Numbered from the stretch's first letter, positions 2,475 through 53,095 are shown. The stretch: 64,000 bases of DNA from an uncultured Candidatus Saccharibacteria bacterium (GCA_964402035.1 CAYOAM010000001.1:371558-435557); one strand, 5' to 3'. Numbers and translations: made by a program. The notes: generated by a model not told the origin, from the sequence alone.

Positions 2475-2755
2475 CCAGTGAAGAATGGTTAGACAAGCAT
2501 TTTCAAGAAAAGTATAAGGGGCATTTTAATCCCTACATTCAATCACTGATTGATACTGACAGTGCCGTGTAGATCTATGTAAATTCCGTTACATTTGAAT
2601 CCGTGATTTCTATCGAGCGATCCGTTCTATTGAAATGCACAAACTTTGAGTGTTCATTATAGTAATTTCCAAGGTCCGGCCTTGGAAACATAAAAACAAC
2701 TTGGAGGTCCGGTCTCCAAGTGGTTTTTAGTACGTACAGTACGTACTAAGTGCAT

Positions 2756-2785
2756 AAAACCCCAAGCCAGATTGCTTGGGGTTCC
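2756..2785 (-). terminator. rho-independent terminator for the minus-strand gene 2820..3359
   Basis: The hairpin ccccaagc-cagatt-gcttgggg reads on the minus strand as a stem followed by TTTT. Confidence 0.5.
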
Positions 2786-2819
2786 CGTTTAATTGGCATA
2801 TCGGGTGAGCCAAAATTCG

Positions 2820-3359
2820 CTAGTCAACCATCGTTGCCCCCAACCGGAACGCATCGATAAGTGAGCAGTCGCCACACCGAGCAAGCTCATGTGCAGCAAC
2901 GACATCATCGATGCCGAGCCCTTCCGCCATTTTTAAAGCAGCATGGAAGGAATCCTGGCATTCCTTGTAGTGCTCAAGGAGCACTACAAGCACCATTGCC
3001 CTCCGGCTCTGCTCTTTGTACAGAGAAGGAGGTCCAAAGCTCTGCTTGAACACCTTCGGCCAGTAGAACCTCGGTTCTTGCAGAGTGTTGAGGAGCTCAG
3101 CGAACCTTACCAGAACTCGCATCTCCTCGACGTCGCCGGTATAGCTTACAACGTCGACTGCATTCCATCCTGGGGTCCGAGTAGTGATGGTAATCATCCC
3201 ATCACTCTCGATAACGCCGGACAGTCGACCTCCCCACTGGTCTTGTTCGATCAACATCTTGACGGCGGTCGGTAGCGTCATGGACTGCGGAGTGGTGGGA
3301 AAAGCTTTCCCGCCCACCCAGCAAACCTTATTGTAAATAAGCGAGACCGGAATGGTCAT
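2820..3359 (-). CDS. hypothetical protein
   Basis: 179-aa ORF with coding-like composition. No recognisable motif. Confidence 0.45.
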   Translation of the reverse strand: MTIPVSLIYNKVCWVGGKAFPTTPQSMTLPTAVKMLIEQDQWGGRLSGVIESDGMITITTRTPGWNAVDVVSYTGDVEEMRVLVRFAELLNTLQEPRFYWPKVFKQSFGPPSLYKEQSRRAMVLVVLLEHYKECQDSFHAALKMAEGLGIDDVVAAHELARCGDCSLIDAFRLGATMVD

Positions 3360-3570
3360 TGATGAACTCCTTGGATCTAAAATGGTTAAAAGTTAAACTA
3401 CCTGCGATATATTATACCATAACAGACAATATATTGTCAATATCAAAAGCGGTAGATTCCAACCTGAAGTGCAACACCTGTTAACTCATAGAATACTTCA
3501 TACGGTGCCTTTCCACCAAGTCGCCCTGCGGGGTCGCGAGTTTTTTTACCAAGGGCAGCCCTTGGTAAAG

Positions 3571-4194
3571 CTATGGGCGGTTTGGATTGCCCTCATCTGC
3601 AAGGCGCCAGAGGTACCATGACGCGACCGAGCAGTATGGGTGCCAGTCTTTCGCAAGCTTTTGCATCTTTTTATCATCCGGCAATGCGCGAAGTTTAAAA
3701 AGTTTCTGAAAGCCTTTTTTAATTCCTAAATCAAGTGTCGGCAGCACATTGGTGCGTCCCAGGGTAAACATCAAAAACATATCGGCAGTCCATACACCGA
3801 TCCCCTTCACCGCTATCAAGTGCTCTCGTATCTCTTCATCCGTCATCTCGGTGAATTTGTCGGGAGTGATAAACCCTTCATTAAACTTGCGAGCGAGATC
3901 GTAGAGATAGTCTGTCTTTTGATTTGAAAGTCCACATTTTCGCAAGGTCTCACGACGCTTTTTCAAAAGTGCTTGCGGCACAGGTTTTTGATCCGGAAAG
4001 AGTGCGACAAAGCGTCCGTGGATCGTACCCGCTGCTTTCCCTGAAAGCTGCTGGTAGATAATGGACCGGCAGAGCGCCTCATACGGATCACCATTTTTTC
4101 CAATATCTGGTTTTGGATGACGAGCAGTAACTGCCGCAAGCGCAGTATCTTTTCGCAAGTGTCGTAGTCCACGGGCAAACTCTTTTGTGCTCAT
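3571..4194 (-). CDS. alkA: DNA-3-methyladenine glycosylase II / HhH-GPD family base-excision glycosylase (AlkA-like)
   Basis: Helix-hairpin-helix Gly/Pro-rich loop region (VKGIGVWTADMFLMFTLGRTNVLPTLDLGIKKG). Size matches the AlkA core. Confidence 0.75.
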   Translation of the reverse strand: MSTKEFARGLRHLRKDTALAAVTARHPKPDIGKNGDPYEALCRSIIYQQLSGKAAGTIHGRFVALFPDQKPVPQALLKKRRETLRKCGLSNQKTDYLYDLARKFNEGFITPDKFTEMTDEEIREHLIAVKGIGVWTADMFLMFTLGRTNVLPTLDLGIKKGFQKLFKLRALPDDKKMQKLAKDWHPYCSVASWYLWRLADEGNPNRP

Positions 4195-4805
4195 ACGTCA
4201 GAAAGATTCTGGATGAGTTCAACTATTTCAGGAAACTGTTCTTGATTGAAATGACCGCGATCATCAAATACTATTGGGGTCGCAAACGGAAGCGCTTGTG
4301 TGTATTTTCCAAGATCAGCGTACGGTACGACAGGATCGTCACTACTATGTATGAGATACAGCTCTCCCCCTTGCGCAGTACATTTTTCCATGGTGGGCGG
4401 CACTGCAAAATCTGCCAATGAGTAGCCGTATGATCGATCACTGTCATCATAAGGAGCCGCAACCAGTATCGTTGCCCGTATATCCCGTGGCAAATGGTGT
4501 TCAGAGAGATACTTTGCCAGAAAAATACCACCCAATGAATGCCCTACAAAAATCACGCCGTCACGAAGATGTGGAATATATTTTTCAAACCACATTTTCC
4601 ACTCGAAGTACTTAGCATTTTTTGGAGACGGCATGCTTGGTCGTATGACCTCGTAGTCCTCACCCAGATCTTCCGCCAAGTTGTCTTTCCAACCCATCGT
4701 CTTAGGCACGTCAAAATCTATTTCATAACTCTCAAGATAGGTGAGATATTTTTCATACGTATCAAAAGCTTCCCCTCCATGCACCACAAACACCTGCTGT
4801 TTCAT
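4191..4805 (-). CDS. alpha/beta-fold serine hydrolase (YdeN/RBBP9-like)
   Basis: Nucleophile elbow VGHSLGG. ~200 aa. The 4-nt ATGA start/stop overlap with alkA suggests an operon. Confidence 0.55.
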   Translation of the reverse strand: MKQQVFVVHGGEAFDTYEKYLTYLESYEIDFDVPKTMGWKDNLAEDLGEDYEVIRPSMPSPKNAKYFEWKMWFEKYIPHLRDGVIFVGHSLGGIFLAKYLSEHHLPRDIRATILVAAPYDDSDRSYGYSLADFAVPPTMEKCTAQGGELYLIHSSDDPVVPYADLGKYTQALPFATPIVFDDRGHFNQEQFPEIVELIQNLSDV

Positions 4806-4856
4806 ATGAAGAGTATAACAAAAAAAGCCCCCGTCCAGTATGGCGGGGGCCGCATC

Positions 4857-5501
4857 TCAAGAGCAGGCTTGGATAATGTACTGAGCTCGACTGAGCTCGG
4901 CCTTGTACAAAGCAGCTCTGGAGCGTCTATTCGGCAAATTGAGTAACACAAGGCCGACAACCGACAGGCCGACCACACTCCACCATGGTGGAGTACCGTT
5001 CAGGAAGTAAAATACTCCGGCGTTTACCAAAATCCCAAGACAGCACAACGAAAGCAGTTGTGGAGTCCGTAGCAATACCCTATTCCATGCACGCTCCTTA
5101 AGTGCACTAGCACGCAGTATTGCGGTTAACACCTCAAAATAGCGAATCCCGCGAATGCCAGTCAATGTATAGACATCTTGCGCACCGCAGACTCGTACAT
5201 GAAAGACATGCCCGTTCAGTTCTTTCTGCAACAAGTGGTAACCATCATCGACATCCATGTAGCATAATTTCCACTCGCCATGTAGGAATGCTTGCATGAC
5301 CGCACCAAAATCCACTTGGCTCGGTCGAGTGGCTTCGTGCCGAAATAACACTTCAAAATCAGCCGAGATTATGATTTGTTTAGAAGCAGAAAGCTCTTCG
5401 GTGACGTTTTTAATTGATGCAGAAACGCGCACTGGTGCAAGCGTCATAACTTCCTCCACTGAGCGACGTAACCCAAACGGGATGCCTGGGGTGTCGCTCA
5501 A
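4857..5501 (-). CDS. hypothetical membrane protein (two C-terminal TM helices)
   Basis: 214-aa ORF. Hydrophobic segments LLSLCCLGILVNAGVFYFL and WWSVVGLSVVGLVLL. Confidence 0.4.
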   Translation of the reverse strand: MSDTPGIPFGLRRSVEEVMTLAPVRVSASIKNVTEELSASKQIIISADFEVLFRHEATRPSQVDFGAVMQAFLHGEWKLCYMDVDDGYHLLQKELNGHVFHVRVCGAQDVYTLTGIRGIRYFEVLTAILRASALKERAWNRVLLRTPQLLSLCCLGILVNAGVFYFLNGTPPWWSVVGLSVVGLVLLNLPNRRSRAALYKAELSRAQYIIQACS

Positions 5502-5619
5502 AAATTGATCCGACTACATTAAGCGCCGAATATAGTATTTTGTCAATCAATATAACTCCACAGTCTACTCAGACAGAGATGCATCCCTATGCTACTGTCA
5601 TAGGGTACGACAGACTGTC

Positions 5620-6807
5620 ATGGAACATATCCTCACCATAAACGCAGGTTCTTCGAGTATAAAATTTGGCCTATTTGAGGCAGGCACTGAACCCAAGAAA
5701 ATTTTGTGGGGTTGCATGGAAAATATCGGCCTTGAACACACCACATTTTCTATACAAAGTGCCGAAACTGAGTCACCGCAACCGCAACCGGTGGATGCCG
5801 CAAATCTTTCGATCGCTCTCCCGATCTTTATCTCGCTACTCAAAGAGCATCTTGCACCGTACACGATTGTTGCTATTGGTCACCGCATCGTACATGGCGG
5901 TGCAACACACGCCGCATCGATAGTGATTACACCTACCGTCATAGAGGATATACGGCAGCTCACCCATTTCGCACCGAACCACCTCCCTGCTGAAATCGCG
6001 CTTATTGAAGCACTGCAACAGACATTTCCACACGTACCACAAGTGGCGTGTTTTGATACTGCATTTCATCATGACCTACCACGCAAAGCGCAGATCATCC
6101 CTATTCCCCGCTCACATGAATCAAAAGGTCTTCGTGCGTATGGTTTCCATGGAATTTCCTATCAGTTTTTGATGCAGCGCCTCCATGAAATAGGAGGCGC
6201 TGCAGTAGCAGAGAGTCGCGTAGTCCTCGCACACCTGGGAAATGGTGCCAGTCTCGCGGCTGTGAGCAAGGGAGCTGTGGTCGACACTACTATGGGTTTT
6301 TCGCCCGCCTCAGGCATACCCATGAGCACCCGCTCCGGTAGCATCGACCCCGGTATCGTCAACTACTTTCTCGAAACAGAAAAAATGTCAGCGCAAGACT
6401 TGAGCACGCTCCTCACCGAACGTTCTGGGCTCCTTGGTATGTCGGAGACGAGCGCGGATATGCGCCAGCTGTTAGACCAAGAAGCAACGGACATACGCTC
6501 AAGAGAAGCGATAGATGTATTTTGCTACCACATACAAAAAACCATCGGCGCATATGCCGCAGCCATGGGAGGCATCGACACCTTAGTATTTAGTGGCGGT
6601 ATCGGTATGCGAGCGCCAAAAGTGCGAAGTCGCATCTGTGAAAACCTTGTCTTTCTTGGTATCGCTATTGATGCAGAAAAAAATAATGCGGGGGCATTGG
6701 TTATTTCTGTAGCTGATAAACCCGTAACGATATACGTCATCGCAACCGATGAGGAACACATGATTGCAAGCGACACAGCACGTATTTATGCCGCATCAAG
6801 CCAGTAA
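5620..6807 (+). CDS. ackA: acetate kinase
   Basis: N-terminal ILTINAGSSSIKF(G) signature. ~395 aa. Immediately upstream of the phosphoketolase gene. Confidence 0.9.
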   Translation: MEHILTINAGSSSIKFGLFEAGTEPKKILWGCMENIGLEHTTFSIQSAETESPQPQPVDAANLSIALPIFISLLKEHLAPYTIVAIGHRIVHGGATHAASIVITPTVIEDIRQLTHFAPNHLPAEIALIEALQQTFPHVPQVACFDTAFHHDLPRKAQIIPIPRSHESKGLRAYGFHGISYQFLMQRLHEIGGAAVAESRVVLAHLGNGASLAAVSKGAVVDTTMGFSPASGIPMSTRSGSIDPGIVNYFLETEKMSAQDLSTLLTERSGLLGMSETSADMRQLLDQEATDIRSREAIDVFCYHIQKTIGAYAAAMGGIDTLVFSGGIGMRAPKVRSRICENLVFLGIAIDAEKNNAGALVISVADKPVTIYVIATDEEHMIASDTARIYAASSQ

Positions 6808-6825
6808 TATATTAAAAACCAATTT

Positions 6826-9210: not shown

Positions 9211-9215
9211 CTTCT

Positions 9216-11883: not shown

Positions 11884-11884
11884 A

Positions 11885-14794: not shown

Positions 14795-14978
14795 CCATAA
14801 AGCATATCAGGACACGGAGACTGAATTGTGTGTTGTACACAAATGCTGCTGCGTTTTATAAAATAAACCGGGCAGCCCACCACCTCTGTCTCCTTTTGTT
14901 TTTGAGCTAAATTTGGTATAACAGACGAGCAGATTTACTGCCTGCTTTAAAGTAAGTGAAGTGGTAAATCTAACCGGT

Positions 14979-15167
14979 CTCCCCTTCACAGGGGCAGTAC
15001 ACCTTCAGGATTTTTTGTCTCCCTTCGGTCACAAAAAACCTCTGAAGGTCCCAAAACAGTCCCCCGGACTTTTTCTCCCTACGGGAGCAGTACACCTTGC
15101 TGCTACTTTTGTTGCTTCGCACAAAAGATACCTATCAAGGTCCCAAAACAGTCCCCCGGACTTTTTT
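14979..15167 (+). repeat. tandem direct repeat of two ~95-nt units, each ending in a terminator-like hairpin plus T-run, immediately upstream of tRNA-Glu
   Basis: The units share ...c(c/t)cc(t)-hairpin-gcagtacacctt...aaggtcccaaaacagtcccccggacttttt. The 3' hairpin agtcc-ccc-ggact is followed by TTTTT. Confidence 0.6.
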
Positions 15168-15239
15168 GGCCCTATCGTCTAACGGTTAGGACGGAGCCTT
15201 CTCAAGGCTCAAATCAGGGTTCGATTCCCTGTAGGGTCA
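15168..15239 (+). tRNA. tRNA-Glu (anticodon CUC)
   Basis: Cloverleaf fits. Acceptor GGCCCTA/TAGGGTC, D-arm GTCT..GGAC, anticodon stem GAGCC/GGCTC with loop TTCTCAA, T-arm CAGGG-TTCGATT-CCCTG, discriminator A. CCA is not encoded. Confidence 0.8.
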
Positions 15240-15261
15240 TGGTTTAAGTTTACTTCACAAA

Positions 15262-15290
15262 AGAGCACTATTTCAGTGCTCTTTTGTGTT
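15262..15290 (+). terminator. rho-independent terminator after tRNA-Glu
   Basis: Hairpin aaagagcact-atttc-agtgctctttt followed by a T-rich tail. Confidence 0.55.
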
Positions 15291-15729
15291 TAGTAAACTC
15301 ACCATGACCCTAAGCAGGCAACCTATGTTGCCTGCGTCGGGGAATCGAAGCGGCGCAGTATATCGCAAAGCGATACGAGCCGCCGTCCAGAAGTCTTAGT
15401 ATTTTAAATATTTTAGTATTTAAAATACTAAGAACTTCGGGGACGATCCAGAACCGGCAAGAGTCCTTACGGGACCCGTTTAGGTTGTATGATATTTTTT
15501 TCAAAAATAATCGACAACCTCTTGAGAAGCTACATGTATTCGCTTCTCAACCCTGTAGGGTCACCATTGACAGCTAGCACTAATAGGTTTGTAATGAATG
15601 CATTTAGAGCTAGCTGTAGAAGCATACGAAATCCCCTAAATTGATTAGGGGATTTCGTATGCTTCAAGATAAATCACTTTTGCAAGAGTTTTTCGGTCCG
15701 CGCCATACTGAATCAGTTATACTTGGATA

Positions 15730-16359
15730 ATGTTTGAACGAAACTCTTTAAGTGACAAGATATTATTTTTAAAATTTGGACTTTTAAATCTCATCTTATT
15801 TTTACTAGTCTATGTTCCAACTAATAATTTACCCCATGAAACATACTTTCAACCATATTTTCTCTGGGAACTTCAGACACAACGAATAGACTGGATGATA
15901 ATTCCATACCATAGTTTCAACTTACTCTTTCTCATCCCTTTGTTTCTCCTCAGAGGCAGACATATCAAAATACTTGGAGTATCATTTTTTTTAACCACTG
16001 TAATCGCGGGGCTCTTCTTTATAATATTTCCCACCCAACTTGGTTTTGTGAGAATAGTTCCTGAAGGTTTCTTCACCTTTTTTTACGAGCATCTATACAA
16101 GTTGGATAATACGACAAATCTTGTTCCTTCATTGCATGTTACGTATGTAACACTTTATTTTATATCTTGTGTACCATTCTTGAAGAGAAAGCTTTCTAAA
16201 ATGTTATTCACTCTATTTACTCTGACAATTATAAGTTCAACATTCTTTACACATCAGCATCATATAGTTGATATAGTATCTGGGATCCTCTTAGCTTCTT
16301 CTGTCTACTGGTTTGTCAGCTATAAATTATTTCAGGAAAATTCTCAACATCTGCAATAA
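15730..16359 (+). CDS. PAP2-superfamily membrane phosphatase-like protein
   Basis: 209 aa, multi-TM. PSLH (resembling the PSGH motif) and HQHHIVDIVSG (matching the SRxxxxxHxxxD third motif) suggest an acid phosphatase/PAP2 fold. Confidence 0.45.
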   Translation: MFERNSLSDKILFLKFGLLNLILFLLVYVPTNNLPHETYFQPYFLWELQTQRIDWMIIPYHSFNLLFLIPLFLLRGRHIKILGVSFFLTTVIAGLFFIIFPTQLGFVRIVPEGFFTFFYEHLYKLDNTTNLVPSLHVTYVTLYFISCVPFLKRKLSKMLFTLFTLTIISSTFFTHQHHIVDIVSGILLASSVYWFVSYKLFQENSQHLQ

Positions 16360-17251
16360 CAGCAGGGGCCTTTTCGAAATTTGGTCGCATACCCCACCAG
16401 AGACTCAACCATCGTTTGAAATATGAATATTGTGGGACTGTATGATATTTAGGGTTAGACAACTCTGTCCAAGGAAGAAATGGGAACTTATGGTGTGCAT
16501 GATCCCACTGTCCATTCAAGAGTACTGCACCATGTATCTTACTTACAGAAAGATCTGAAGCTCCTTCAACTACATTTCTTGGTGTCCATGCATGAGTAAC
16601 ATATTGACGCGTTGCCCAATTAATACCAAAGCAAGCGTAAACAATCAAAACACTTTGCCACTGTAAGGAAAGAATATTCCACATTACGATCCATAGGGTG
16701 ATAGTAAAAATAATCTCAAGCCGTACTTTTGTAATAACCTTTCCTTTAAATTCGTTAAATAAGATACTTGAGAATGGCGATTGTCTAAAAGGTTTAGTCT
16801 TAAAGAACCAAGGTGCTATTGCCATCAGTAGATTTCCGAGTGGTACTAATGGGTAATATATGCCGGTGAGTATCCCGTACCATTGAATGTTTTTTGTAAT
16901 CTTATTATCATTGGGATAATAGTAATCGAAGAGTTCATGATCCGTCCTATTTCCCCGATGATGCATTCGATGAGCAATCTCGAACATGGTGAAGGATTTT
17001 GGAAATAAGCTGTGACAAAGTACTCCGAGGATATAATTCATCTTTTTCGATTTATGGAGTACGTGATGTACCGATTCGTGCATAAGTGCATAATTCGTAA
17101 GTAGCACAAACGAAAATAATATTCCTATCGGAATCGACCAAATAAGCTCAAGACGCGAACCTAACCAAAGCAAGCCAAATGCTCCAATTTGAATCAGAAC
17201 AACGAGTAGTAGGTTGAGTCTACTAGGTAATTTAATCGTTGTAATTTTCAT
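16316..17251 (-). CDS. membrane fatty-acid desaturase/hydroxylase superfamily protein (three His boxes)
   Basis: His boxes HESVHH, HRMHH and HAHH with multi-TM spacing typical of di-iron desaturases/hydroxylases. OlsE-type lipid hydroxylases share this fold. Confidence 0.8.
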   Translation of the reverse strand: MKITTIKLPSRLNLLLVVLIQIGAFGLLWLGSRLELIWSIPIGILFSFVLLTNYALMHESVHHVLHKSKKMNYILGVLCHSLFPKSFTMFEIAHRMHHRGNRTDHELFDYYYPNDNKITKNIQWYGILTGIYYPLVPLGNLLMAIAPWFFKTKPFRQSPFSSILFNEFKGKVITKVRLEIIFTITLWIVMWNILSLQWQSVLIVYACFGINWATRQYVTHAWTPRNVVEGASDLSVSKIHGAVLLNGQWDHAHHKFPFLPWTELSNPKYHTVPQYSYFKRWLSLWWGMRPNFEKAPAVIADVENFPEIIYS

Positions 17252-17259
17252 TTGTGACT

Positions 17260-17931
17260 CTACGATTTACTTCTGCGGAAAAATCTAAATGCAATGAAAC
17301 CAAGAATGAGACCAAGTGCCACTCCACCTAAAGCAAAATACTTATTCCATGACTGAGCACTTGTGAGAAGCGGGTTATCGAACAGATTGCTTGTAAATTG
17401 TAAGGAGACAACTTTCCATGAACCATTCTCCTTAACTAGTGTAGTAGACCACTTTGATGTGACTTCCATTTCCATACCGGCTACAAAAGTATAGTGATCA
17501 ACTGCAGTTCCATATGCTATTGCCGTATCGCCGTAAAACTCAGTCAATTTGTCGGCAGTCACTTTTGTCTTTATACTCTTAAGGACGCCACCATTTTCAT
17601 TAAAAATCCTTTCTTGAAATGCTTTGACTTCAGCAACTCCATCAGCAACTTCTGCATTTTGGTAAATAATGTTCACATTTGGATCAAGGTACTTGATCAT
17701 GTCATCAAACCTACCCTCATTAATTGCCTTTTCCGCATCAATCAACATTGTTCTGAGAGCATTATGATCTGCGGTGCGGTCAGAAGTATCAACAGCAGAG
17801 GTGCTCGTTTGAGCAAATGTGGTGAGGCTAAAACTACCTGCTAAAATTAACCCTACCAGAAAAAAGAGTCCTTGTTTCATAAATTTAATTTGTATTATTA
17901 ATATAATGGCACATCTTATATATGATCCCAC
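17260..17931 (-). CDS. secreted/membrane-anchored hypothetical protein (NTF2/SnoaL-like fold suspected)
   Basis: A signal peptide starting at the internal Met (MKQGLFFLVGLILAGSFSLTTFA) and a C-terminal TM anchor. No catalytic motif recognised. Confidence 0.4.
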   Translation of the reverse strand: MGSYIRCAIILIIQIKFMKQGLFFLVGLILAGSFSLTTFAQTSTSAVDTSDRTADHNALRTMLIDAEKAINEGRFDDMIKYLDPNVNIIYQNAEVADGVAEVKAFQERIFNENGGVLKSIKTKVTADKLTEFYGDTAIAYGTAVDHYTFVAGMEMEVTSKWSTTLVKENGSWKVVSLQFTSNLFDNPLLTSAQSWNKYFALGGVALGLILGFIAFRFFRRSKS

Positions 17932-18820
17932 TCATATCACTTGTTCTGAGGAAATGGTCAACTCCCCACACGGGATACACCTCACCAGAGATGTGTATCA
18001 AATCCTTGAGAAGAATTATACCATCATTCGGACCTGATGGAGCAAGTGTTTTATATCTTTTTACAAGAAATGGTTCTACATGTGAAAGTAGTGGGAACCC
18101 AACGATATGAACTACTTTAATATGTGAATCTAGAAGCATTTCTTTTTGCAAAGACTTGTTCCTGCACGCAATTTGATCTGTGACAGCATAATCAATCCTC
18201 AAGACTTTCAGCGTTAAGTACCAAATTATTTTCGTCAAAAAAGTACGAAGTTTTTTATCTGCGTGGGGTGTTCCGTTGATTAGACCACCAATACTGATCC
18301 ATCCTTTAATATTTTTTGCAAGATTTTTACCTCGTAATTCTTCAAGCGCTAAACGAACTTCTGTAGAACCTTTACTTAAAGAGACAAGCCAAACATTGTT
18401 ATGCTGGTTATCACGGAGTTTACTTAAGATGATTTCTTTATTATCTAAAACTGACCCTCGACTAAGCACTTCAACAGTCTCTGTTTCGAATCCAAATTTC
18501 TCTGCAATATTTCTGACCAATAATCCGTCCCCGCCAATATCACCATGTTCTTTATAGAACATGCCCGGTATTATAATTATTTTCGTCGGTTGATTAGGTG
18601 CTGATAGTGACGTGGAGAAATTATTAATAGTGGCAATAAAGTTCTTGTGTTTCATGAGTAAATACTTATACAGCATTGCTGTCGCCTGATCAGTACCATG
18701 CGCAGAAGTCACTTCGTCTACTTTTTCAAGTATCAGGTCACTAGTAAAAACAACTGATGTCTTTTTAAACAGTTCAATTTCATCTATAAGCGGTGAATTA
18801 CGGACAATCCCTCTTTTCAT
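17885..18820 (-). CDS. hypothetical protein, possible alpha/beta-hydrolase-like
   Basis: 311-aa ORF. A weak nucleophile-elbow-like segment LVSLSKGS. No confident family assignment. Confidence 0.35.
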   Translation of the reverse strand: MKRGIVRNSPLIDEIELFKKTSVVFTSDLILEKVDEVTSAHGTDQATAMLYKYLLMKHKNFIATINNFSTSLSAPNQPTKIIIIPGMFYKEHGDIGGDGLLVRNIAEKFGFETETVEVLSRGSVLDNKEIILSKLRDNQHNNVWLVSLSKGSTEVRLALEELRGKNLAKNIKGWISIGGLINGTPHADKKLRTFLTKIIWYLTLKVLRIDYAVTDQIACRNKSLQKEMLLDSHIKVVHIVGFPLLSHVEPFLVKRYKTLAPSGPNDGIILLKDLIHISGEVYPVWGVDHFLRTSDMSGIIYKMCHYINNTN

Positions 18821-18822
18821 AA

Positions 18823-19782
18823 TTATTTATTCATTGGGTATCGAGGCAACTTGTCCCAATAATTCCAAAAATCAACTGCAGAAGCATCTTCTATCGTAAG
18901 AATGCCCTTTTTCGGTTTCATATTCTTTTGTATAGGAAAATCGGGTTTAAGAAAAGAGAAACTCATGAATCTCAAAAATGATAATCTTGGTTTCTCAATT
19001 ATTCGCAGAAATGAGGTTCGGGATTCTTTAGGAAGAGCGACAACAAAATAAAGTGTTGTCGTTTTATTTCCTTCGTTTGGGAGGAGTGCAAGAAAAGCAC
19101 AGTGCCCTGTAATCTTGTTATGAACCATAATAAGATTACCACCGTAATAATCCAATTGAATATTTGACTTAAGTAAACCAAGAAATTTTATTATGTAGTC
19201 ATACCACCTTCTAACAATAAGACCAATTTCAAGGCTAATGCCAATATGAAATATATTCTGACTAAACACAGTATGACTAAACACAGTACGATTATGGACA
19301 TTATAAAAATGCCATGTATCAAAACCATTAAGGCTAACTGCCAGATACGGGTTTTGCAACTGATGCACCAACGGCATTGAATATGCCGGATTTGCTATTT
19401 CAGTAAATTGCGGAATTTCGAAAAGAGGTTTTTCTCCCCAAAATATGAACACGAGACCATACCTTTCCTCCACAAAAAGTCTGCCTGTTACAACTTGTGA
19501 GGGCTTAAGATTTGAGGGTGGCATTTTTGTGCATTCTCCATCTGCATTAAACTGCCATTCATGAAGTGGGCAAGCAATGCAATTGTCCTTAACCGTCCCA
19601 TTTGCAAGGTCGGTTCCCATGTGAGGACAAAACCTGCTCACCATACCGAGTTTTCCATCACCACCTCTAAATAGAAGCCAATCTGTTCCGTTAAACAAGA
19701 TCGGCTTAAGCTGTTTTCTCTTGATTTCACGTGATAAACAGATTGGGTACCATGATTGAGGTAAGGAGAATTGTTCTGCCAT
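18823..19782 (-). CDS. Rieske [2Fe-2S] domain non-heme iron oxygenase-like protein
   Basis: Rieske motifs CPHMG...(17 aa)...CPLHEW at the N-terminus. ~320 aa matches the oxygenase alpha-subunit-like (PaO/KshA-like) architecture. Confidence 0.75.
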   Translation of the reverse strand: MAEQFSLPQSWYPICLSREIKRKQLKPILFNGTDWLLFRGGDGKLGMVSRFCPHMGTDLANGTVKDNCIACPLHEWQFNADGECTKMPPSNLKPSQVVTGRLFVEERYGLVFIFWGEKPLFEIPQFTEIANPAYSMPLVHQLQNPYLAVSLNGFDTWHFYNVHNRTVFSHTVFSQNIFHIGISLEIGLIVRRWYDYIIKFLGLLKSNIQLDYYGGNLIMVHNKITGHCAFLALLPNEGNKTTTLYFVVALPKESRTSFLRIIEKPRLSFLRFMSFSFLKPDFPIQKNMKPKKGILTIEDASAVDFWNYWDKLPRYPMNK

Positions 19783-19903
19783 ATTTTTTAATTATCTAAC
19801 AATTATTCTGTTTTGACAATACAGCACAATACGGTACTATTCGATGCGGATTGCCCTTGTTCATTGAAATAATTCACCAACCTCAACCTCTGGAGATTCT
19901 GAT

Positions 19904-21284
19904 GAAGATCACACTACTTATGCCTCAGAGCGATATGTATCGTAAGGGTGGGATTTTCCCGAAAGCCCTCCGGTATGCACCGCTTACACTCACAACTCTC
20001 GCAGCTTTGGTTCCAGAAGCTCTAAATGCCACTATCAAGTGCCATGACGAAGCTTCTGAAGTCTTTGATCCCGAGAAGTGTGATGCTGACATCGTCGGCA
20101 TCACCGTAATTACACCGACGTCAAAACGTGCGTATGCTTTTGCAAAAAAATTGCGCGCGCGAGGCATCTTTGTGGTTCTCGGTGGTGTCCATGTAACTCT
20201 TGTGCCTGAAGAGGCCCAAAAACATGCCGACGCAATCATCACTGGCTACGCAGAAGAGACATTGCCACAACTTTTGCGAGATTTTGCCAAGAAGCAGACT
20301 CGTAAGAGGTATGACCAAGGACATTCGTATCAGTTTCAAAGCGTGCCAATACCCCGACGAGACCTGCTCAACAGGAAGCCGTACGTAACCATGAACACTG
20401 TGCAAGCAGTGCGTGGGTGCCCATACAAGTGCACCTTCTGTGTAGTTCCGTCAGCTTGGCCTCAATATATGCACCGACCAATCAAAGAAGTCATTGCAGA
20501 AATTGAAGCCCTTGATGGGGACACGTTCTTATTCCTCGATTTGAGTCCTGTGGAAGATCGAAGGTACATCAAAGATCTTTATCGAGCTTTGATACCACTC
20601 AAGAAAAAATGGGGAGGCTTGTCTACGTTCACGATTTGCAAAGATCGTGAGATGCTTGAACTCGCTTCCAAGAGTGGTTGCCGAGGTTTGCTCATTGGTA
20701 TCGAATCAGTGAACCCATCAAACCTACACGAAATGAAGAAAGGGTTTAATAAGCCCGACTCCTACCGTGAGCAGATCAAAATGCTGCACGATCACGGAGT
20801 AGCAGTAAACGGCTGTTTCGTGTTTGGTATGGACGAGGATAACAAAGACGTCTTTGATAGGACGGCTGAGTTTGCAATCGAGACCGCCATTGACTTGCCG
20901 AGGTTTGCCGTGGCTACTCCTTTCCCTGGAACGCCGTTCTTCAAACAACTGCAATCTGAGAAAAGGATACAGAGCTACGACTGGAGCTTGTACAGTGGCC
21001 AACACGTCTTGTTCCAACCAAAGCAAATGACCGCCGAAGAGTTGCATCAAGGTATTCGTAGGACATGGAAAGAGGTTTACAGGCTTGGTTCGGTTTGGAA
21101 GAGAATCTTTTCTTCTGAGGCGAGCAGAGACTGGGACTTACTCAAAGTGTCCATCCCTGCAAACTTGGGTTACGCCGCGTATTCAAAATTTCTCCCACCA
21201 TTCATTTCGATGTCGTGTGGGGAGGAAGATATGTGGCTACCTGAGACAGTGCAACAATCACCAATCGTTCTCAACAGACTCTAG
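19904..21284 (+). CDS. B12-binding domain radical SAM protein (class B radical SAM methyltransferase-like)
   Basis: N-terminal B12-binding-like region, then the CxxxCxxC cluster RGCPYKCTFCVV. The start is set at MKITLLMPQ, which is typical for the family. Confidence 0.8.
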
Positions 21285-45792: not shown

Positions 45793-45797
45793 AATGG

Positions 45798-46349: not shown

Positions 46350-46386
46350 ACCTTATGATAGCTTTACTACGGGCGCGACGCAAGAA

Positions 46387-47013: not shown

Positions 47014-47042
47014 ACACTAGCAGTATACCGTCACCAAAGCAG

Positions 47043-48479
47043 TTACGCAGCTTGCTGCATACCAGCCATCACAACACGACGCACAAAATGTTCAACAAGC
47101 TCACGTTCAATCGGCAGTAGTTTGTATGCATCGCGCCACGCTCGCAGATTTTCACCGACATTATTAAACGTCTCAGGACGGATTTCTTTTGGAATAGTGC
47201 CATCATTATGGAGCAAGTCTTCAATCATGATATGTCGTACCGCAATCCAATCGGGATGCTGCGTGCCCGACTGCCCACCGATGCCGAGGAAACCTGTGGT
47301 ACCTAACCAACGCGTAAGCAAATCATTGAGACCTTTTGTCACCTCAGGGGCCAACAGCGGATCGATCGGTGTACTTTCTCTGAGCACTGCAGCATTTGCA
47401 TCACCCACATTCTTTTGCTTTTCAGTTAGAATGCTCCCTGCGGTCACTACACCAGAAGCAGGAGCACGGGGCACTGCTACTGGTGCAGACGGAACAGCAT
47501 CTGGTCTTGGAATTGATGGCGTCGTCACCGCTTCATTACTCTGTTTATTGATCACGATGTCGAGTGGTGCATCGACATGCTTACTGGTGCCATAATTGGT
47601 CGGCGCAGAAACATCGACTGGTGGAGGTGGAGGGACAGCAGCCTCCACAACTGGCTTAGTGAGAATTGAGACACGCGCTTTCAGAACGGCAGGCGGAGGG
47701 ACGGATGCTGCTGCCGATGGAGGAGTGGTTTCTGGCTTCGGCACATGACTATCTTTTCCCACAACCATACGTACTGATTCCGCTTGTTTTTTCAAACCCT
47801 CCAAACGCTGCTCTAAAGCAGGTATATCAATACCTGCAGTTATTGATGCAAGTGCCGCTCGAATCTCAAGCAACTCTTTTACATACTCGCGATACCCAGT
47901 CGTCGTATCATTGAGCCACTGAAATGCTCTTCCACGTCCAAATGCAATGAGCTCATCGTTTGTCTTTTCGAGCCGAGTGCGCAAGGCCTGTATTGCAGTA
48001 TCCACTCCTGTGCCCGCCGAAGTTTCCGACACTGCTACTACGGGTTCGGCTTGAGGTACTGGCACGGGCGCTGAAGTAACCGAAGCCGCAACGGGTGCTC
48101 CAAAATCAGGTCCTCGCTTTCGCGGAGCAGAAACGACCGCATCTACAGACGATCGTGCGGGGTCGACTGACTGGACTTCTATCTTTTTTGATACGACAAC
48201 AGGAGCAGGTGCGTCAGGTGTAGTAGGCGCAGATGCAGGTTGTGTGGCTGGAAGCGCTGCCACAGGAACAAGAAAGTGGGCAAGCGTTTTTAATTGTGCG
48301 TCAACATGAGCAGGAGTTCCACCTCCTCGCGCAAGCTGCATAAGTTCATCACGAAGTGTATTGTACGCCGCACGCTCAACATCATTAAAAGAAGCAGATG
48401 CTTTCTGAAGCGTCACAAACATACGCGCACGATCGGCAGCATTTTTTATATCAAAATTCTGAGGAGCATTTCCGTTCAT
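47043..48479 (-). CDS. hypothetical protein with a long Pro/Ala/Val-rich low-complexity linker
   Basis: 478 aa. A structured N-terminal ~110 aa, a >200-aa P/A/V-rich region (PPPPVDVSAPTNY...) and a C-terminal ~120-aa domain. No signal peptide seen. Confidence 0.5.
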   Translation of the reverse strand: MNGNAPQNFDIKNAADRARMFVTLQKASASFNDVERAAYNTLRDELMQLARGGGTPAHVDAQLKTLAHFLVPVAALPATQPASAPTTPDAPAPVVVSKKIEVQSVDPARSSVDAVVSAPRKRGPDFGAPVAASVTSAPVPVPQAEPVVAVSETSAGTGVDTAIQALRTRLEKTNDELIAFGRGRAFQWLNDTTTGYREYVKELLEIRAALASITAGIDIPALEQRLEGLKKQAESVRMVVGKDSHVPKPETTPPSAAASVPPPAVLKARVSILTKPVVEAAVPPPPPVDVSAPTNYGTSKHVDAPLDIVINKQSNEAVTTPSIPRPDAVPSAPVAVPRAPASGVVTAGSILTEKQKNVGDANAAVLRESTPIDPLLAPEVTKGLNDLLTRWLGTTGFLGIGGQSGTQHPDWIAVRHIMIEDLLHNDGTIPKEIRPETFNNVGENLRAWRDAYKLLPIERELVEHFVRRVVMAGMQQAA

Positions 48480-48523
48480 ACGATACCACTACTATAGCAT
48501 CACCCAAATCGGCAACCGAGATG

Positions 48524-51262
48524 TCATCGTTGATAACGTGCTTGAATATCATTTTCAATAGCAGCTCGTTCTTTTCCGTACCGCACGTACGACGCGTTCA
48601 TGAGCGCCTCAATACGGTGAGCGTCACCAACAACAGGAGGAAATGTAGCGATGGAAAATGGTTTTGCCGGCACTCCCTCGACCAACATGCGTACGTATGC
48701 ATGTCTGTTTTCTATGTGCATCAAATCATGCGCTTTAAACTCTGGTGCAAATTGCTTTTCCAAAAATTCAGCGTCAGCAGAACCGACACGAAACGCACAG
48801 ATTGAACCCACGTTGCCAAAAACCGCATCACGAATTTTTTCATCTATTTGCGCTATAAACTGGTGTGCTATTGTGAGCCCAAGCTTGTATTTGCGCGCCT
48901 CAGAGAGAATCGATGCGATCGAGTTTGTGGTGATATTTTGAAACTCATCGATGTGGAGATAAAACGGTGCGTAGTCGCCCGATCGATCATCGACGCGTGA
49001 GAGCGCAGCCATGAGTATTTTTCCGACAATGATCATACCGATGAGGTTCGCATTGATTTCTCCCAAACGCCCCTTGGAGAGATTTACCAATAAAATTTTC
49101 TTACTGTCCATCACTTCACGCATATTAAATGCAGATGTTTGTTGACCAATGATCGGACGCATAAAATCGTTTGCGGTAAAGATATCAAACTTGGAGGTGA
49201 TATACGGCACCATATTTTCAAGCGCAGCATCTCCGCCGGCCTTGGTCGCAATTTCTTTCCAAAACTGGATGACGACGGGATTTGTCGCTTTGCTCAATTT
49301 GAGACGACGAAATTCGGCATCAGCCATGACGCGAGAGACATCGAGCAAAGTTGAACCACTTTGAGGATCATCAAGGACGAGCATGGTGGCGTTTCTAAAA
49401 TACTGTTCAAATATCGGACCCATTGATTCCGGTACCGCGCCATACAATTTTTGAAAAATTGAAAAAAGTTCGTTGACAACAAACGTTTTCTGCTCGGGAA
49501 ATTGCGGATCGTACTCGAGCATGTTGAGTCCGAGCACATGTTCCGTGTGCGCAGGATCAAAATAGATAATATCTTTTTCTCGCTCAGGGGGAACAGCAGC
49601 CAATACATCTGCAATATCGGTACCGTGTGGGTCAATAAAGCACACGCCTGCCCCATTTTTCATGTCGTCAATCACCATGTTTTTGAGCAATACCGATTTT
49701 CCCGTACCGGTCTGCCCCACGACATAAAAATGTCGCAGACGATCTTGTGGCGAAATATAAATATCAGTTTCTTTGCCACGATGTGAATTTTTTCCAATGC
49801 GCGTCCCTTGCTGCGGCATTACGATCGGTGCGGGAGCAGTTTTTGCTTGCACCTGTTTAAATTGTGGCGCAAGTTCATTGCTACCACGCGGTATATGGAT
49901 GAGTGTTGCAATTTCGCGCTCAGACAGTGGCAGTGCATACTCGTCTGCAAACTCACGAAATGAGAATCGTTGTAGTTCGCGCGTGCTCGTCCGACCCTTG
50001 AGCGTAGAAAAAGAAATACTATTTCCCATGGTGTGTTCAAACTGATTGAACGCCGCCTCTATTTCATGGACGAGCTGCTGCGCACGTGCTTCTTCCTTTG
50101 CTGAAATAGCGATACGTATCACCACCTCATGAATGGGTCGTTCAATCTTCTTTTGAAACAATTCGAGTTTCTCTTGCGGTATATCGTGCTTCTCTTTCTC
50201 CTCTTCTTTTTTCTTTGAGCTAAACAATTCATCCTGCACAAAGTGTAGGACGCTACCAAACATGGTCGACTGCTCTATCGCCTTGTCAACCGAGGTACCT
50301 TTCCGCACTTTTTTTATAATATCCTCGTACTTTTTTTGATAATCAAATGGACGAGGACGCACTAGTATCTGGAGCGATGCTCCGCCTCCCTCGCGTTCTA
50401 TTTTTGAAAACGCATTCAAGAGAACTCGCAATGGGTCATGGTCAAATGTATCGTACGTCCGTATCGGATAAATCGGAAACTTCTTGAGCTTCGCCACTGA
50501 GACGAGCGAAATTCCACCTTCAGAAAAAATATTGTAGTCATTTTTCTCTTCAGTCAAAACGGCATGTGGAAAAAGTGAGAGTAGCTGTTTTTCAAAAAGG
50601 TCAATGTACTGCGTTGGTACCGCCATATAAAAAACAATGTCGTCACTCTTGTCGGAGACCGCAATTTCGAGCGAATAATGAAAGTGCTGTTTGCGATCAC
50701 CCTTGCCAATGGTCTGGAGTCCCGCAAACAATTGCTCCATCGCCGATATGATAGCCGTCAATTCTTGCGCTTCTTCTTTTTCATCGGGAGATTCTGGGAG
50801 CGACACCGAAAACAATGTCATATGGAGAATATTCCACTCAGGTGCTCCGTCTTTGAAATTTGCAACATGCTTGCCGGTGCGGATATGCGCTACGAGTGCG
50901 CGATGCGCCTCATCGATAATAAATGAGTTTCGTGTTCGCTCAAGCACCGAAAGCGCATTGCGGATACCATAGTCTTCGGCAAGATGTATAACTTCCTCAA
51001 CCTTGTTGCGCGCCACGCTAACCTGCTCTGCAAGTCCGACCGTGAGTGCTGGCGAGAGTCTGCGATCCTCGGGCAAGACGGCGCTCGGTTCATGTTCACC
51101 ATATTCACGCAAAGCGGCCTTGCCCAAGGTCTCATAGTCTGCCGTATCGCCATTCCCTTGCCGCTCCATCATTGTACGTTCACGCTTTGCTATTTCTGCG
51201 CGCAAATACGCAATCTCTGCTTCAGGAGACCCAAAACTCTTCGGTTGTGGCCGCTCACTCAT
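48524..51262 (-). CDS. HerA/FtsK/VirB4-superfamily ATPase (DUF87-like), 912 aa with a large unknown N-terminal region
   Basis: Walker A GQTGTGKSVLLKN is followed by FIDPHGT (HerA/VirB4 DPHGE-like). Walker B YLHIDEFQNI. Arginine-finger segment EARKYKLGLTIAHQ (matching EGRKYGVGL). Confidence 0.7.
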   Translation of the reverse strand: MSERPQPKSFGSPEAEIAYLRAEIAKRERTMMERQGNGDTADYETLGKAALREYGEHEPSAVLPEDRRLSPALTVGLAEQVSVARNKVEEVIHLAEDYGIRNALSVLERTRNSFIIDEAHRALVAHIRTGKHVANFKDGAPEWNILHMTLFSVSLPESPDEKEEAQELTAIISAMEQLFAGLQTIGKGDRKQHFHYSLEIAVSDKSDDIVFYMAVPTQYIDLFEKQLLSLFPHAVLTEEKNDYNIFSEGGISLVSVAKLKKFPIYPIRTYDTFDHDPLRVLLNAFSKIEREGGGASLQILVRPRPFDYQKKYEDIIKKVRKGTSVDKAIEQSTMFGSVLHFVQDELFSSKKKEEEKEKHDIPQEKLELFQKKIERPIHEVVIRIAISAKEEARAQQLVHEIEAAFNQFEHTMGNSISFSTLKGRTSTRELQRFSFREFADEYALPLSEREIATLIHIPRGSNELAPQFKQVQAKTAPAPIVMPQQGTRIGKNSHRGKETDIYISPQDRLRHFYVVGQTGTGKSVLLKNMVIDDMKNGAGVCFIDPHGTDIADVLAAVPPEREKDIIYFDPAHTEHVLGLNMLEYDPQFPEQKTFVVNELFSIFQKLYGAVPESMGPIFEQYFRNATMLVLDDPQSGSTLLDVSRVMADAEFRRLKLSKATNPVVIQFWKEIATKAGGDAALENMVPYITSKFDIFTANDFMRPIIGQQTSAFNMREVMDSKKILLVNLSKGRLGEINANLIGMIIVGKILMAALSRVDDRSGDYAPFYLHIDEFQNITTNSIASILSEARKYKLGLTIAHQFIAQIDEKIRDAVFGNVGSICAFRVGSADAEFLEKQFAPEFKAHDLMHIENRHAYVRMLVEGVPAKPFSIATFPPVVGDAHRIEALMNASYVRYGKERAAIENDIQARYQR

Positions 51263-51357
51263 AGTAGCTTCATCGTACTTGATCTCGCCTACCGCTAGAA
51301 GTGTTTCCGTCCACAGGCCATATCACACAAGAAGGTTGTTGCGCAGCAATCGTCCAA

Positions 51358-52368
51358 TTATTGCTTAGAAACAATACTACGTTTATAAGTATCCAAATGC
51401 TCAAGCGCAATGCCAGTACCTTTTGCGACACAGTAGAGCGCATTGTCCGCAAGAATTGCTTTTACACCGGTACGACGACGTACGAGCTCGGGAAAATTGC
51501 GGAGTTGCGATGTACCTCCCGTCATAATGATGCCTTTATCAATAATATCTGACGCAAGTTCTGGTGGTGTTTCTTGAAATACATCCTTGATTGCTCGCAC
51601 CATGTCACGCAACTCGCGCGAGATAGCACGCACGATTTCATTTGTCTTGATTTCAACCGTACGTGGAAGTCCCGTCAGCAAATCGCGACCTTTGACTTGC
51701 ATCACCAACTCTTCTTCAAGTGGCAACGCTGATCCAATATTTATTTTTACTTCCTCCGCAGTCTTGTCTCCGATTGCAAGGTTGGCACTTTTTTTAACAT
51801 AGTCGATGATGGCGTGATCAATATGATTTCCTGCACACTTCACCGAGTTTGCCGCGACAATACCGCCAAGTGAAATAACCGCAACGTCGATCGTTCCGCC
51901 TCCGACATCGACGATCATGTGCCCACGCGGCTCATATATAGGTATGCCAGCTCCAATTGCGGCGAGGATCGGCTCTTTGACCACATAGGCATTGCGAGCT
52001 CCGACATTCATCGCCGCCTCGACCACAGCACGCTTTTCAGTCGAAGAAACTCCAGCAGGTACCGACACCATGACATCCGGCTTAAATATCGAATACGGTC
52101 CAAGAGCTTTGCGGAGAAAATACCGCAACATCGCCTCAGTCACGCGATAGTCTGCGATGACGCCATCTTTCATCGGACGATACGCACGAATATTTTCTGG
52201 CGTCCGACCCACCATCTCTTTTGCCTCCGCGCCCACAGCAAGGATTTTTTTATCATCAGATATCGCCACAACCGAGGGTTCATTGAGTACAATCCCCCGC
52301 CCAGGGATAAAGACGAGCACATTAGTTGTACCCAAATCAATACCAACTTTTGGAGTGAAATAAGACAT
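51358..52368 (-). CDS. second actin-like MreB/Mbl paralog
   Basis: Actin-fold motifs VGIDLGTTN, DVGGGTIDVAV and IIMTGGTSQL. 336 aa. Shares only low identity with the mreB at 42303..43373. Confidence 0.8.
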   Translation of the reverse strand: MSYFTPKVGIDLGTTNVLVFIPGRGIVLNEPSVVAISDDKKILAVGAEAKEMVGRTPENIRAYRPMKDGVIADYRVTEAMLRYFLRKALGPYSIFKPDVMVSVPAGVSSTEKRAVVEAAMNVGARNAYVVKEPILAAIGAGIPIYEPRGHMIVDVGGGTIDVAVISLGGIVAANSVKCAGNHIDHAIIDYVKKSANLAIGDKTAEEVKINIGSALPLEEELVMQVKGRDLLTGLPRTVEIKTNEIVRAISRELRDMVRAIKDVFQETPPELASDIIDKGIIMTGGTSQLRNFPELVRRRTGVKAILADNALYCVAKGTGIALEHLDTYKRSIVSKQ

Positions 52369-52501
52369 ATCTCTAAAACGTGCTTAGTATAGCAGTTTTT
52401 TAGCTTATATATTGAAGATACTTGCTTTATTCATGTTATATGGTATAATTGACACCTGATATTGTTCCCAGTTCTTCTCACTATCGACAGGGAGTATCCC
52501 A

Positions 52502-52984
52502 ATGAACAATTCTTCAATGCAAGCAAACCCCTGCATTCTTGTTGCTTTACGTGGAGGTATCAAGGATGCGTTTGCCGAAATCATAAGGCAAATCGAGCTA
52601 TTAGAAATGGAATTCGATGCACTGCGTTTGAGACCGCTCGACTCCGAAGAAGAGAGACGATTCCTACTTTCTTTTCACAAAGAAATAGGCGTCTCTCTAA
52701 AAAGTATATTGCGTCAATCCGCCACGATGGATGTTGTCAATACAATGACATCAATCGACACTGTTCTCTGTCTTTACGCATTCGCCACAAGCAACCGATG
52801 CATTGAAAAGGTGAAACCAAGAACGATTGTTGTTCTGACAGAATTTAGGGTGACGTTTCAAGCTCTTGACCGGGCACGAAAATGGCTTCAAAGGGAAGTT
52901 GAATACATTACCAACCCGCCACCATTGTGGTGGCGCATACTTGCGGGTCTAACGAACAGCCGAGCACCGTTGCGCGGTCGGTAA
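52502..52984 (+). CDS. hypothetical protein
   Basis: 160-aa ORF in the divergent region between mreB2 and murA. No motif. May be spurious. Confidence 0.3.
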   Translation: MNNSSMQANPCILVALRGGIKDAFAEIIRQIELLEMEFDALRLRPLDSEEERRFLLSFHKEIGVSLKSILRQSATMDVVNTMTSIDTVLCLYAFATSNRCIEKVKPRTIVVLTEFRVTFQALDRARKWLQREVEYITNPPPLWWRILAGLTNSRAPLRGR

Positions 52985-53047
52985 CAACATTCGCCCACGA
53001 AGAGTCGCTTGCGACCTTCGTGGGCGATTTTTCTATTTATCTTTCCA

Positions 53048-53095
53048 TACCAAGGGTAGCCCTTGGTAGATATTTTTTCCAAGGGTTACCCTTGG
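53048..53095. promoter_or_regulatory. two tandem 17-21-bp perfect palindromes CCAAGGG-N3-CCCTTGG upstream of murA (candidate operator pair)
   Basis: taccaagggTAGcccttggta (53048-53068) and ccaagggTTAcccttgg (53079-53095). Centres are ~30 bp apart. They lie 60-110 bp upstream of the murA start. Confidence 0.4.

Follow-up and report, generated by a model that had tools for sequence, protein, structure and literature searches.

A 64-kb stretch of DNA (CAYOAM010000001.1:371558-435557), hereafter called the window, carries a short palindrome of the form CCAAGGG-N3-CCCTTGG that recurs between genes and stands twice in front of murA. The locus raises the question of whether these sites are bound as duplex DNA by a regulator or belong to a family of mobile hairpins. 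The initial annotation had read the pair in front of murA as a cooperative operator of a dimeric transcription factor and had given, as the other possibility, a small hairpin resembling repetitive extragenic palindromes (REPs) or miniature inverted-repeat transposable elements (MITEs); it is the latter that was strengthened by our analysis. With good confidence, the window palindromes can be regarded as REP-like elements of a system of REPs and REP-associated tyrosine transposases (RAYTs) that is widespread in Patescibacteria, also known as the candidate phyla radiation (CPR), and they most likely represent short DNA hairpins, selfish or domesticated, on which a tyrosine transposase of the RAYT type acts. 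The grounds are that the same palindrome flanks RAYT genes elsewhere, that the palindromes of the family co-vary with the locus in which they lie, and that the two copies in front of murA fold as a doublet.

The palindromes of the window

Positions were counted over the whole window, the G+C content of which is 45.6%. The exact sequence CCAAGGGNNNCCCTTGG was found three times, at 3549-3565 (hairpin A), 53050-53066 (hairpin B) and 53079-53095 (hairpin C), and was matched in none of 100 dinucleotide-preserving shuffles of the window. The initial description of exact arms with varying spacers in intergenic positions was confirmed. When up to two mismatches were permitted, one extra site was obtained (2669-2685), giving a total of four against 0.14 expected. 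Around its core, hairpin A extends over 3545-3569 (TTTACCAAGGG-CAG-CCCTTGGTAAA), hairpin B covers 53048-53068 (TACCAAGGG-TAG-CCCTTGGTA) and hairpin C 53079-53095 (CCAAGGG-TTA-CCCTTGG), so that the three differ in their loops (CAG, TAG and TTA, respectively). The arms of A and B are identical over 9 nt (TACCAAGGG/CCCTTGGTA). The perfect palindromes of the window span 17-25 nt, and all five hairpins, comprising the three exact copies and two variants described below, are intergenic. None of the window copies carries a GT[AG]G tag.

Folded as single-stranded DNA, hairpins A, B and C reached -10.3, -8.4 and -6.6 kcal/mol, respectively, with z-scores of about -4.3 to -4.7. The centre-to-centre distance of B and C is 29 nt, in agreement with the ~30 bp originally noted, and the two copies folded jointly into one hairpin of 17 bp (-17.7 kcal/mol, z-score -7.2). 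Together they constitute an inverted doublet (53048-53095; loops TAG versus TTA, the reverse complement of which is TAA) of the type of bacterial interspersed mosaic elements (BIMEs) and REPINs, the REP doublets forming hairpins that are known from Pseudomonas fluorescens (PMC3116915, PMC3337134).

Cognate hairpins around RAYT-type genes

The 14 specified bases of the motif were searched for in GTDB, with one genome per species, and at least 119 loci matched; 8-10 kb per genome were analysed for foreign loci, with genes as simple open reading frame (ORF) calls. Among the loci listed, 20 bear names of Patescibacteria/Paceibacterota or of candidate phyla belonging to them, and a further two come from unclassified metagenome-assembled genomes (MAGs) of low G+C content. 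Patescibacteria, with genomes of ~1 Mb, account for a minor part of the collection, and the group is therefore clearly enriched among the matches listed. Its copies in these matches were intergenic in 22 cases and located in ORFs (at least 90 aa) in nine, as opposed to 15 and 82, respectively, outside the group. More than one contig was matched in three of the MAGs among the matches listed. Viral contigs contained no match to TACCAAGGGNNNCCCTTGGTA. In the MAG of Candidatus Faecivivens stercoravium, which does not belong to the CPR, the motif was observed twice (L065, 3552-3568, and L076, 3519-3535), within an almost identical segment (more than 50 nt) shared by two contigs; these copies presumably belong to a repeated gene or an insertion sequence that has no relation to the family of the CPR.

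In many copies, pairing extends past the core through unrelated sequence, as in AAAAACTATCCAAGGG-ATG-CCCTTGGATAGTTTTT, which would be expected of a hairpin and not of a site bound by a protein in duplex form. Copies in other genomes were found between convergent or tandem gene ends, and inverted doublets occurred away from RAYT genes in two loci (L030 and L093).

A gene of the Y1_Tnp family adjoins the motif in four of the listed GTDB loci (L023, L017, L039 and L078) and is directly flanked by it in three. In L023, from a Paceibacterota MAG, three copies were found at spacings of 688 and 690 bp, the last two of which bracket an ORF of 218 aa; their loops read GAA and TTC, and the flanking copies are accordingly inverted with respect to each other. 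When the L023 protein was used as a tblastn query, homologues adjoining the motif were recovered in L017, L039 and L078, and none was found in the listed loci from outside the Patescibacteria. For the reverse approach, an alignment of the four proteins was used to collect 80 homologous loci from JGI metagenomes. The exact motif was present in one of them (L127, with a protein 76% identical to that of L023), since each RAYT has its own cognate palindrome. The palindrome shared by L023 and L127, TACCAAGGGgaaCCCTTGGTA, has the same 9-nt arms as hairpins A and B of the window.

In nearly all of the 80 loci, a perfect palindrome stands ~50 nt before the start codon and is repeated ~650-690 nt after it. 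Its sequence varies by locus, examples being ACACAGGG-ttc-CCCTGTGT, CTGCAAGG-tcttg-CCTTGCAG and TACAAGGT-tca-ACCTTGTA; a word of at least 12 nt was nevertheless common to both flanks in 56 of the 68 loci with two flanks, compared with two of 68 in a control with mismatched loci. In an alignment centred on the loops of 59 upstream and 64 downstream hairpins, strong conservation (89-95%) was confined to AGG at -5 to -3 and CCT at +3 to +5, with weaker conservation of C-A at -7/-6. The consensus of the family is CAAGG-N-(3 nt)-N-CCTTG, of which the window motif is a textbook example. For the analysis of covariation, sites were picked on AGG-N5-CCT alone, and the flanks of 79 loci yielded 174 of them. 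Pairs of the Watson-Crick type made up stem positions 6-9 in 80-88% of these sites, with all four pair types represented, compared with 16-25% when the partner was shifted by one position, and the pattern is therefore base-pair covariation, a signature of structure. Inverted doublets with spacers of 3-5 nt were frequent beside the RAYT gene (L179, L183, L195 and L204), and solo cognate copies more than 300 nt from it occurred at ~one per 27 kb, a density close to the one per 21 kb of the window.

In about 10-13 of the 79 RAYT genes, the cognate palindrome was observed a third time, in frame within the gene itself. Such copies lie at ~+155 to +170 from the start codon (L017, 2326-2342; L039, 7509-7525; L140, L151, L160, L166, L198 and L203) or further in, at +190 to +290 (L161, L204 and L205). 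Most often the copy is found ahead of the HuH motif, at codon ~53, where it encodes, for example, IQGEPLE; the family consensus there, IQGxPL, corresponds to ATC-CAA-GGn-nnn-CCn-TTG and is therefore itself the consensus hairpin.

By its motifs, profile and fold, the protein encoded between the palindromes is RAYT-like. The 218-aa protein of L023 matched the Pfam family Y1_Tnp (PF01797) with 35.3 bits (cut-off 23), and H84-F85-H86 (HuH), Y144, N148 and P149 were invariant in an alignment of 30 sequences, with ~58 aa from HuH to the tyrosine. Class 2 enzymes (TnpA-REP/RAYT) bear the signature Y---NP, IS200 transposases Y---Q, and the distance from HuH to the tyrosine is 58-67 residues in most subclasses (Quentin et al., PMC6006769); both class 2 features are thus found in the protein. 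For three of the proteins, the best NCBIfam family was the REP-associated tyrosine transposase (REP_Tyr_transpos, NF047646; 26-42 bits), which was the sole match for two of them, the third having one more match that was weak and unrelated, and no IS200 model of NCBIfam was matched by the three proteins at E<=0.1. In a Foldseek comparison of the AlphaFold model with the PDB, the sole match below 1e-3 was 4ER8_A (E 8.7e-5, probability 1.00, TM-scores 0.50/0.64), which is the E. coli RAYT in complex with a REP hairpin, with the TnpA proteins of IS608 and ISDra2 trailing at E 0.1-0.5. The family has at least 7,793 members at E<=1e-5, which are named 'transposase' by their sources and derive from Paceibacterota, Nomurabacteria, Daviesbacteria, Zambryskibacteria and Yonathbacteria.

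Two variant hairpins of the window can be compared with this family. The variant that had initially been placed at 2659-2680 is real but lies at 2668-2686, where TCCAAGG-TCCGG-CCTTGGA forms the inner part of hairpin D (2666-2688; TTTCCAAGG-tccgg-CCTTGGAAA). It retains CCAAGG/CCTTGG arms, with T/G in place of the G-C pair beside a CCG loop, and tccgg/ccgga loops of this kind were also seen in the RAYT-flanking palindromes of L191, L141 and L197. Hairpin E (2698-2720; ACTTGGAGG-tccgg-TCTCCAAGT, that is ACTTGGAGGTCCGGTCTCCAAGT, followed by GGTTTTT) was positioned correctly from the outset; it resembles D in its loop and AGG top and differs in its lower stem, and its membership in the family is less certain.

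By analogy with E. coli REPs and TnpA-REP (PMC3479197, PMC6006769), each copy would fold in transiently single-stranded DNA into a stem of 8-12 bp with a loop of 3 nt. A RAYT-type HUH/Y1 enzyme may recognise this hairpin, probably via the invariant AGG/CCT, the three base pairs below the loop, and specificity for the lineage would reside in the loop and the lower stem, both of which vary. Such an enzyme would bind and cleave the window hairpins; through cutting and rejoining, copies would spread or persist in the few dispensable intergenic spaces, settling as single copies or, like B+C, as inverted doublets. After insertion, they may secondarily serve as transcript-end or RNA-stabilising hairpins, and an effect on murA is conceivable.

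Several observations weigh against the assignment to a REP/RAYT system. No RAYT gene was detected within the 64-kb window (tblastn best E=1.9), so that the cognate RAYT is assumed to be encoded elsewhere in the source genome. The density of copies, one per 21 kb of the window, is low beside that of classical REPs, and no conserved sequence, including a GT[AG]G tag, was found outside the hairpin at the 59 upstream and 64 downstream RAYT-flanking sites. The scores for NF047646 did not reach its equivalog cut-off of 80 bits, and the AlphaFold model was of moderate confidence (predicted local distance difference test 67, predicted template modelling score 0.72). In addition, the figure for the enrichment of Patescibacteria is approximate, and at least one Nomurabacteria genome names two paralogues of the transposase, which leaves room for behaviour like that of an insertion sequence.

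Alternative explanations and gene context

The best of the alternatives is that the hairpins are the ends or miniature derivatives of an active IS200-like insertion sequence, akin to MITEs or palindrome-associated transposable elements, in which case a unit of ~740 bp (hairpin-transposase-hairpin) would move and the solo palindromes would be its remnants, in place of a domesticated RAYT in single copy with its REPs. This is improbable, even though hairpins at ~-50 and ~+650-690 around a Y1 gene of ~200-220 aa do have an IS200-like layout, the family is named 'transposase' and the two paralogues mentioned above would suit it. A sequence-only search of the PDB with a profile of four sequences gave ISDra2 TnpA alone, at an uninformative E of 0.96. 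Opposed to this are the tyrosine motif, which is Y---NP as in class 2 and not the Y---Q of IS200 (PMC6006769), the NCBIfam assignment to REP_Tyr_transpos with no IS200 model at the threshold used, and a fold that favours 4ER8 over the TnpA proteins of IS608 and ISDra2 by the E-values given above; moreover, the window contains five hairpins but no transposase. A longer mobile unit with conserved flanks had been proposed at the start as the mark of a REP or MITE. The flanks proved not to be conserved, and an equal role is played by the link to transposase genes.

That a dimeric transcription factor uses the palindromes as operators and controls cell-wall synthesis through cooperative binding to the murA pair is very unlikely. 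Perfectly symmetric 7-3-7 arms with variable spacers would suit such a factor, as would the location of B and C, which are 42-71 nt upstream of the murA ORF when this is called from TTG 53138 and 60-89 nt upstream of ATG 53156, at the spacing of 29 nt. Since many related MurA proteins carry a fused HTH_3 domain of the helix-turn-helix (HTH) type, DNA-binding control of murA is conceivable in the group, but the MurA of the window has no HTH domain. Comparison with relatives also speaks against an operator. In species with a MurA 79-82% identical to that of the window (L003-L007), mreB and murA are direct divergent neighbours 65-100 bp apart or have other small genes between them, and neither the 160-aa ORF that precedes the doublet in the window nor a palindrome was found in the mreB-murA region. 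None of the relatives sampled thus has the sites in front of murA. In two further assemblies of the strain of the window, B and C were unchanged. Relatives with an HhH-GPD protein 76-77% identical to that encoded beside hairpin A have different small hypothetical genes downstream of the HhH-GPD gene. Within ~70 kb of relatives (76-82% protein identity), no family-type hairpin was found, as against four in the 64-kb window, where 0.16 were expected by chance. As the hairpins are absent from the sister species at both loci, they are best seen as lineage-specific insertions at variable spots and not as conserved regulatory sites.

Hairpin A is also ill placed for an operator. The initial annotation had put it upstream of the gene at 2820-3359 (ORF179, minus strand), and it does precede the ORF179 promoter, a perfect sigma-70 promoter at 3440-3411 (TTGACA-18-TATAAT, with a TGnTATAAT -10 element), by ~110 nt as counted to the -35 box; it is not at this promoter, which is the nearest, but 5 nt past the stop codon of a gene for an HhH-GPD glycosylase on the minus strand (3571-4194). 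Elsewhere, the motif stands between the ends of convergent or tandem genes and around a transposase gene, and its stems lengthen with unrelated complementary sequence and show base-pair covariation across the family. The idea of a cooperative operator at murA was accordingly abandoned.

Two side observations concern these neighbourhoods. The window MurA (53156-54490) and its closest relatives are 441-458 aa in length and free of an HTH domain, and many homologues from Nomurabacteria/Parcubacteria with ~70% identity, P0023 and P0031-P0033 among them, have ~499 aa and a fused HTH_3/XRE-type domain (PF01381, PF12844, PF13560). At the spot orthologous to that of hairpin A, 4 nt past the HhH-GPD stop codon, locus L207 (~6625-6650), from a relative, has an imperfect palindrome of another subtype, TCAAGGT-tta-ACCTCGA, with one arm mismatch; it is possibly a decayed REP of the CAAGGT type, as seen beside other RAYT genes.

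Equally small is the chance that the sites are ordinary transcript-end hairpins, either intrinsic terminators or 3'-end stabilisers, which would have become alike through selection for G+C-rich stems in an A+T-rich intergenic background and would have no link to a transposase. A terminator scan flagged hairpin B, which is followed by GATATTTTTT, and the hairpin at 2699-2721, which is followed by GGTTTTTAGT, as terminator-like, and for these two the original statement that no U-tracts follow does not hold. It does hold for A and C, which were not flagged and lack a downstream T-run on both strands. The position of A just behind a stop codon would also fit a transcript end, and in four Patescibacteria loci (L022, L038, L043 and L113) the motif tops a longer A-run/hairpin/T-run structure. 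However, an identical core of 14 to 18 nt across the window sites and distant genomes cannot be due to convergence, given its absence from the shuffled sequences, and the adjacency to RAYT genes would go unexplained. Hairpins B and C, moreover, sit beyond a canonical intrinsic terminator (52999-53033) that ends the 160-aa ORF (ORF160; 52502-52984, plus strand), and thus between this terminator and the murA ATG at 53156. A secondary terminator role for some copies is possible and compatible with their being REPs.

A DNA-uptake sequence, of the kind of the Neisseria word that forms terminator pairs, was rejected, as single CCAAGGG/CCCTTGG words are not enriched outside the palindromes (11 such 7-mers in the window, of which six lie in the three palindromes; an arbitrary 7-mer would be expected ~8 times on the two strands).

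The proteins encoded in the window include MreB, MurA, a PriA-like protein, Def and AspRS, and the MurA homologues that bear source names are from Parcubacteria and Nomurabacteria, which places the source organism among the Patescibacteria (Paceibacteria-like). A canonical terminator (2760-2781) belongs to ORF179, which has hairpin A on one side and hairpins D and E on the other. The proteins of ORF160 and ORF179 had neither similarity to each other nor a Pfam match, and each forms a singleton cluster in ~15 billion proteins. As a further observation, the two orphans occupy spots where the sister species have nothing (mreB-murA) or other small genes. When the window was scanned with Rfam at gathering thresholds, a tRNA and a group I intron were found and nothing else, and a permissive scan of 52950-53160 returned generic hairpin matches alone, far under threshold.

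Two other regions of the window were also noted. A tRNA gene (59738-60075, plus strand) is interrupted by a full-length group I intron (59762-60021; RF00028 in Rfam, 88 bits), and the 5' half of the gene runs from ~59738 (TCCGATGTAGCTCAATGGTAGAGCAGCTCGCT...) and the 3' half to ~60075 (...CGAGTTGGTTGTAGGTTCGAATCCTACCATCGGAGCA). The interrupted tRNA was not called by ARAGORN when unspliced; brute-force splicing mostly gave tRNA-His(GUG), with an ambiguous junction. Around tRNA-Glu(CUC) (15167-15240), there is a non-coding stretch of 935 bp that contains several hairpins and a direct repeat of ~29 nt, AAGGTCCCAAAACAGTCCCCCGGACTTTT, at ~15046 and ~15137; a 13-nt copy of the 3' end of the tRNA (CCCTGTAGGGTCA) is found at ~15551. 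After this stretch the G+C content dips to 37.6-40% (14-20 kb), and the region ~14800-20000 resembles the scar or boundary of an element that inserted itself at the tRNA gene.

Significance and relation to known systems

Most known REP/RAYT systems come from Proteobacteria, and their definition was based on a hairpin with a GT[AG]G tag; the results point to a very large family of this kind in the CPR. The results correct a tempting misreading of the sites as a murA operator and single out intergenic spots at which orphan genes entered otherwise syntenic regions. They also provide a search rule, AGG-N5-CCT in a stem of at least 8 bp beside a Y1 gene with Y---NP, by which repeats could be annotated in thousands of CPR genomes. 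A published account of REPs or RAYTs in Patescibacteria, CPR or Parcubacteria was not found in the literature, and one 2026 preprint mentions a match to K07491, in an archaeon. We put forward, tentatively and with more doubt than conviction, that Patescibacteria carry a large undescribed REP/RAYT lineage in which recognition proceeds via AGG/CCT in a perfect hairpin with a 3-nt loop and not via GT[AG]G, and that in these very small genomes with densely packed genes the hairpins mark, and may help to create, variable spots of orphan genes; with an active RAYT, it would amount to a single-strand DNA system that shapes gene turnover in the CPR. RAYTs with non-canonical hairpins are already a known concept, given the description of subclass 2.6 and class 3 (PMC6006769), and the value of the finding is moderate because no concept is overturned.

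REPs are short sequences (~20-40 nt) that can form a stable hairpin. In classical REPs this hairpin is imperfect and its 5' foot carries the defining tetranucleotide, GT[AG]G or CGTC (PMC6006769, PMC3733652), and in E. coli they occur with YafM/TnpA-REP (4ER8) in the 'REPtron' arrangement (PMC6006769, PMC3479197). The CPR elements resemble these proteobacterial systems in that short palindromes lie between genes, alone or as inverted pairs, with a sequence that differs among lineages, and in the association of a Y1/HUH gene with a cognate palindrome on each side (L023, L127, L017 and L039), the encoded protein sharing HuH and Y---NP and having 4ER8 as its best structural match. Copies of the palindrome inside the RAYT ORF, as in the CPR loci, are known for subclass 2.4 and some members of subclass 2.8 (PMC6006769). 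The differences lie in the hairpins, which in the CPR lack the 5' GT[AG]G, are perfect and unbulged with a 3-nt loop and have a conserved AGG/CCT within the stem, in a copy density of ~one per 20-27 kb, in a protein of ~218 aa that remains under the NCBIfam cut-off, and in the host group itself (CPR/Patescibacteria).

With the REPINs of P. fluorescens, the CPR elements share the inverted pair that gives rise to a longer hairpin, as in B+C and in L030, L093, L179, L183, L195 and L204. Unlike in REPINs, however, each CPR unit is itself a perfect palindrome, the orientation of which is visible in the loop alone, the spacers measure 3-12 nt, and singlets are at least as frequent as doublets.

Atypical untagged structures have been reported by Quentin et al. 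for TnpA-Y1 subclass 2.6 and class 3 (PMC6006769), where Y1 genes are likewise flanked by structures without GT[AG]G that have further genomic copies. Going by the published descriptions, these are set apart from the CPR elements in that their structures are weaker or have a CnGA foot and class 3 carries Y----Q, whereas the CPR hairpins are strong, contain AGG/CCT and accompany Y---NP. The IS200/IS605 elements and their palindrome-associated miniature derivatives, finally, are similar in that a Y1 HUH enzyme acts on subterminal DNA hairpins and in the hairpin-gene-hairpin unit of ~0.7 kb, and they are dissimilar in that the CPR protein is without Y---Q, matches no IS200 profile and has a fold nearer to that of RAYTs, and in that the hairpins of the window are free of an accompanying gene.

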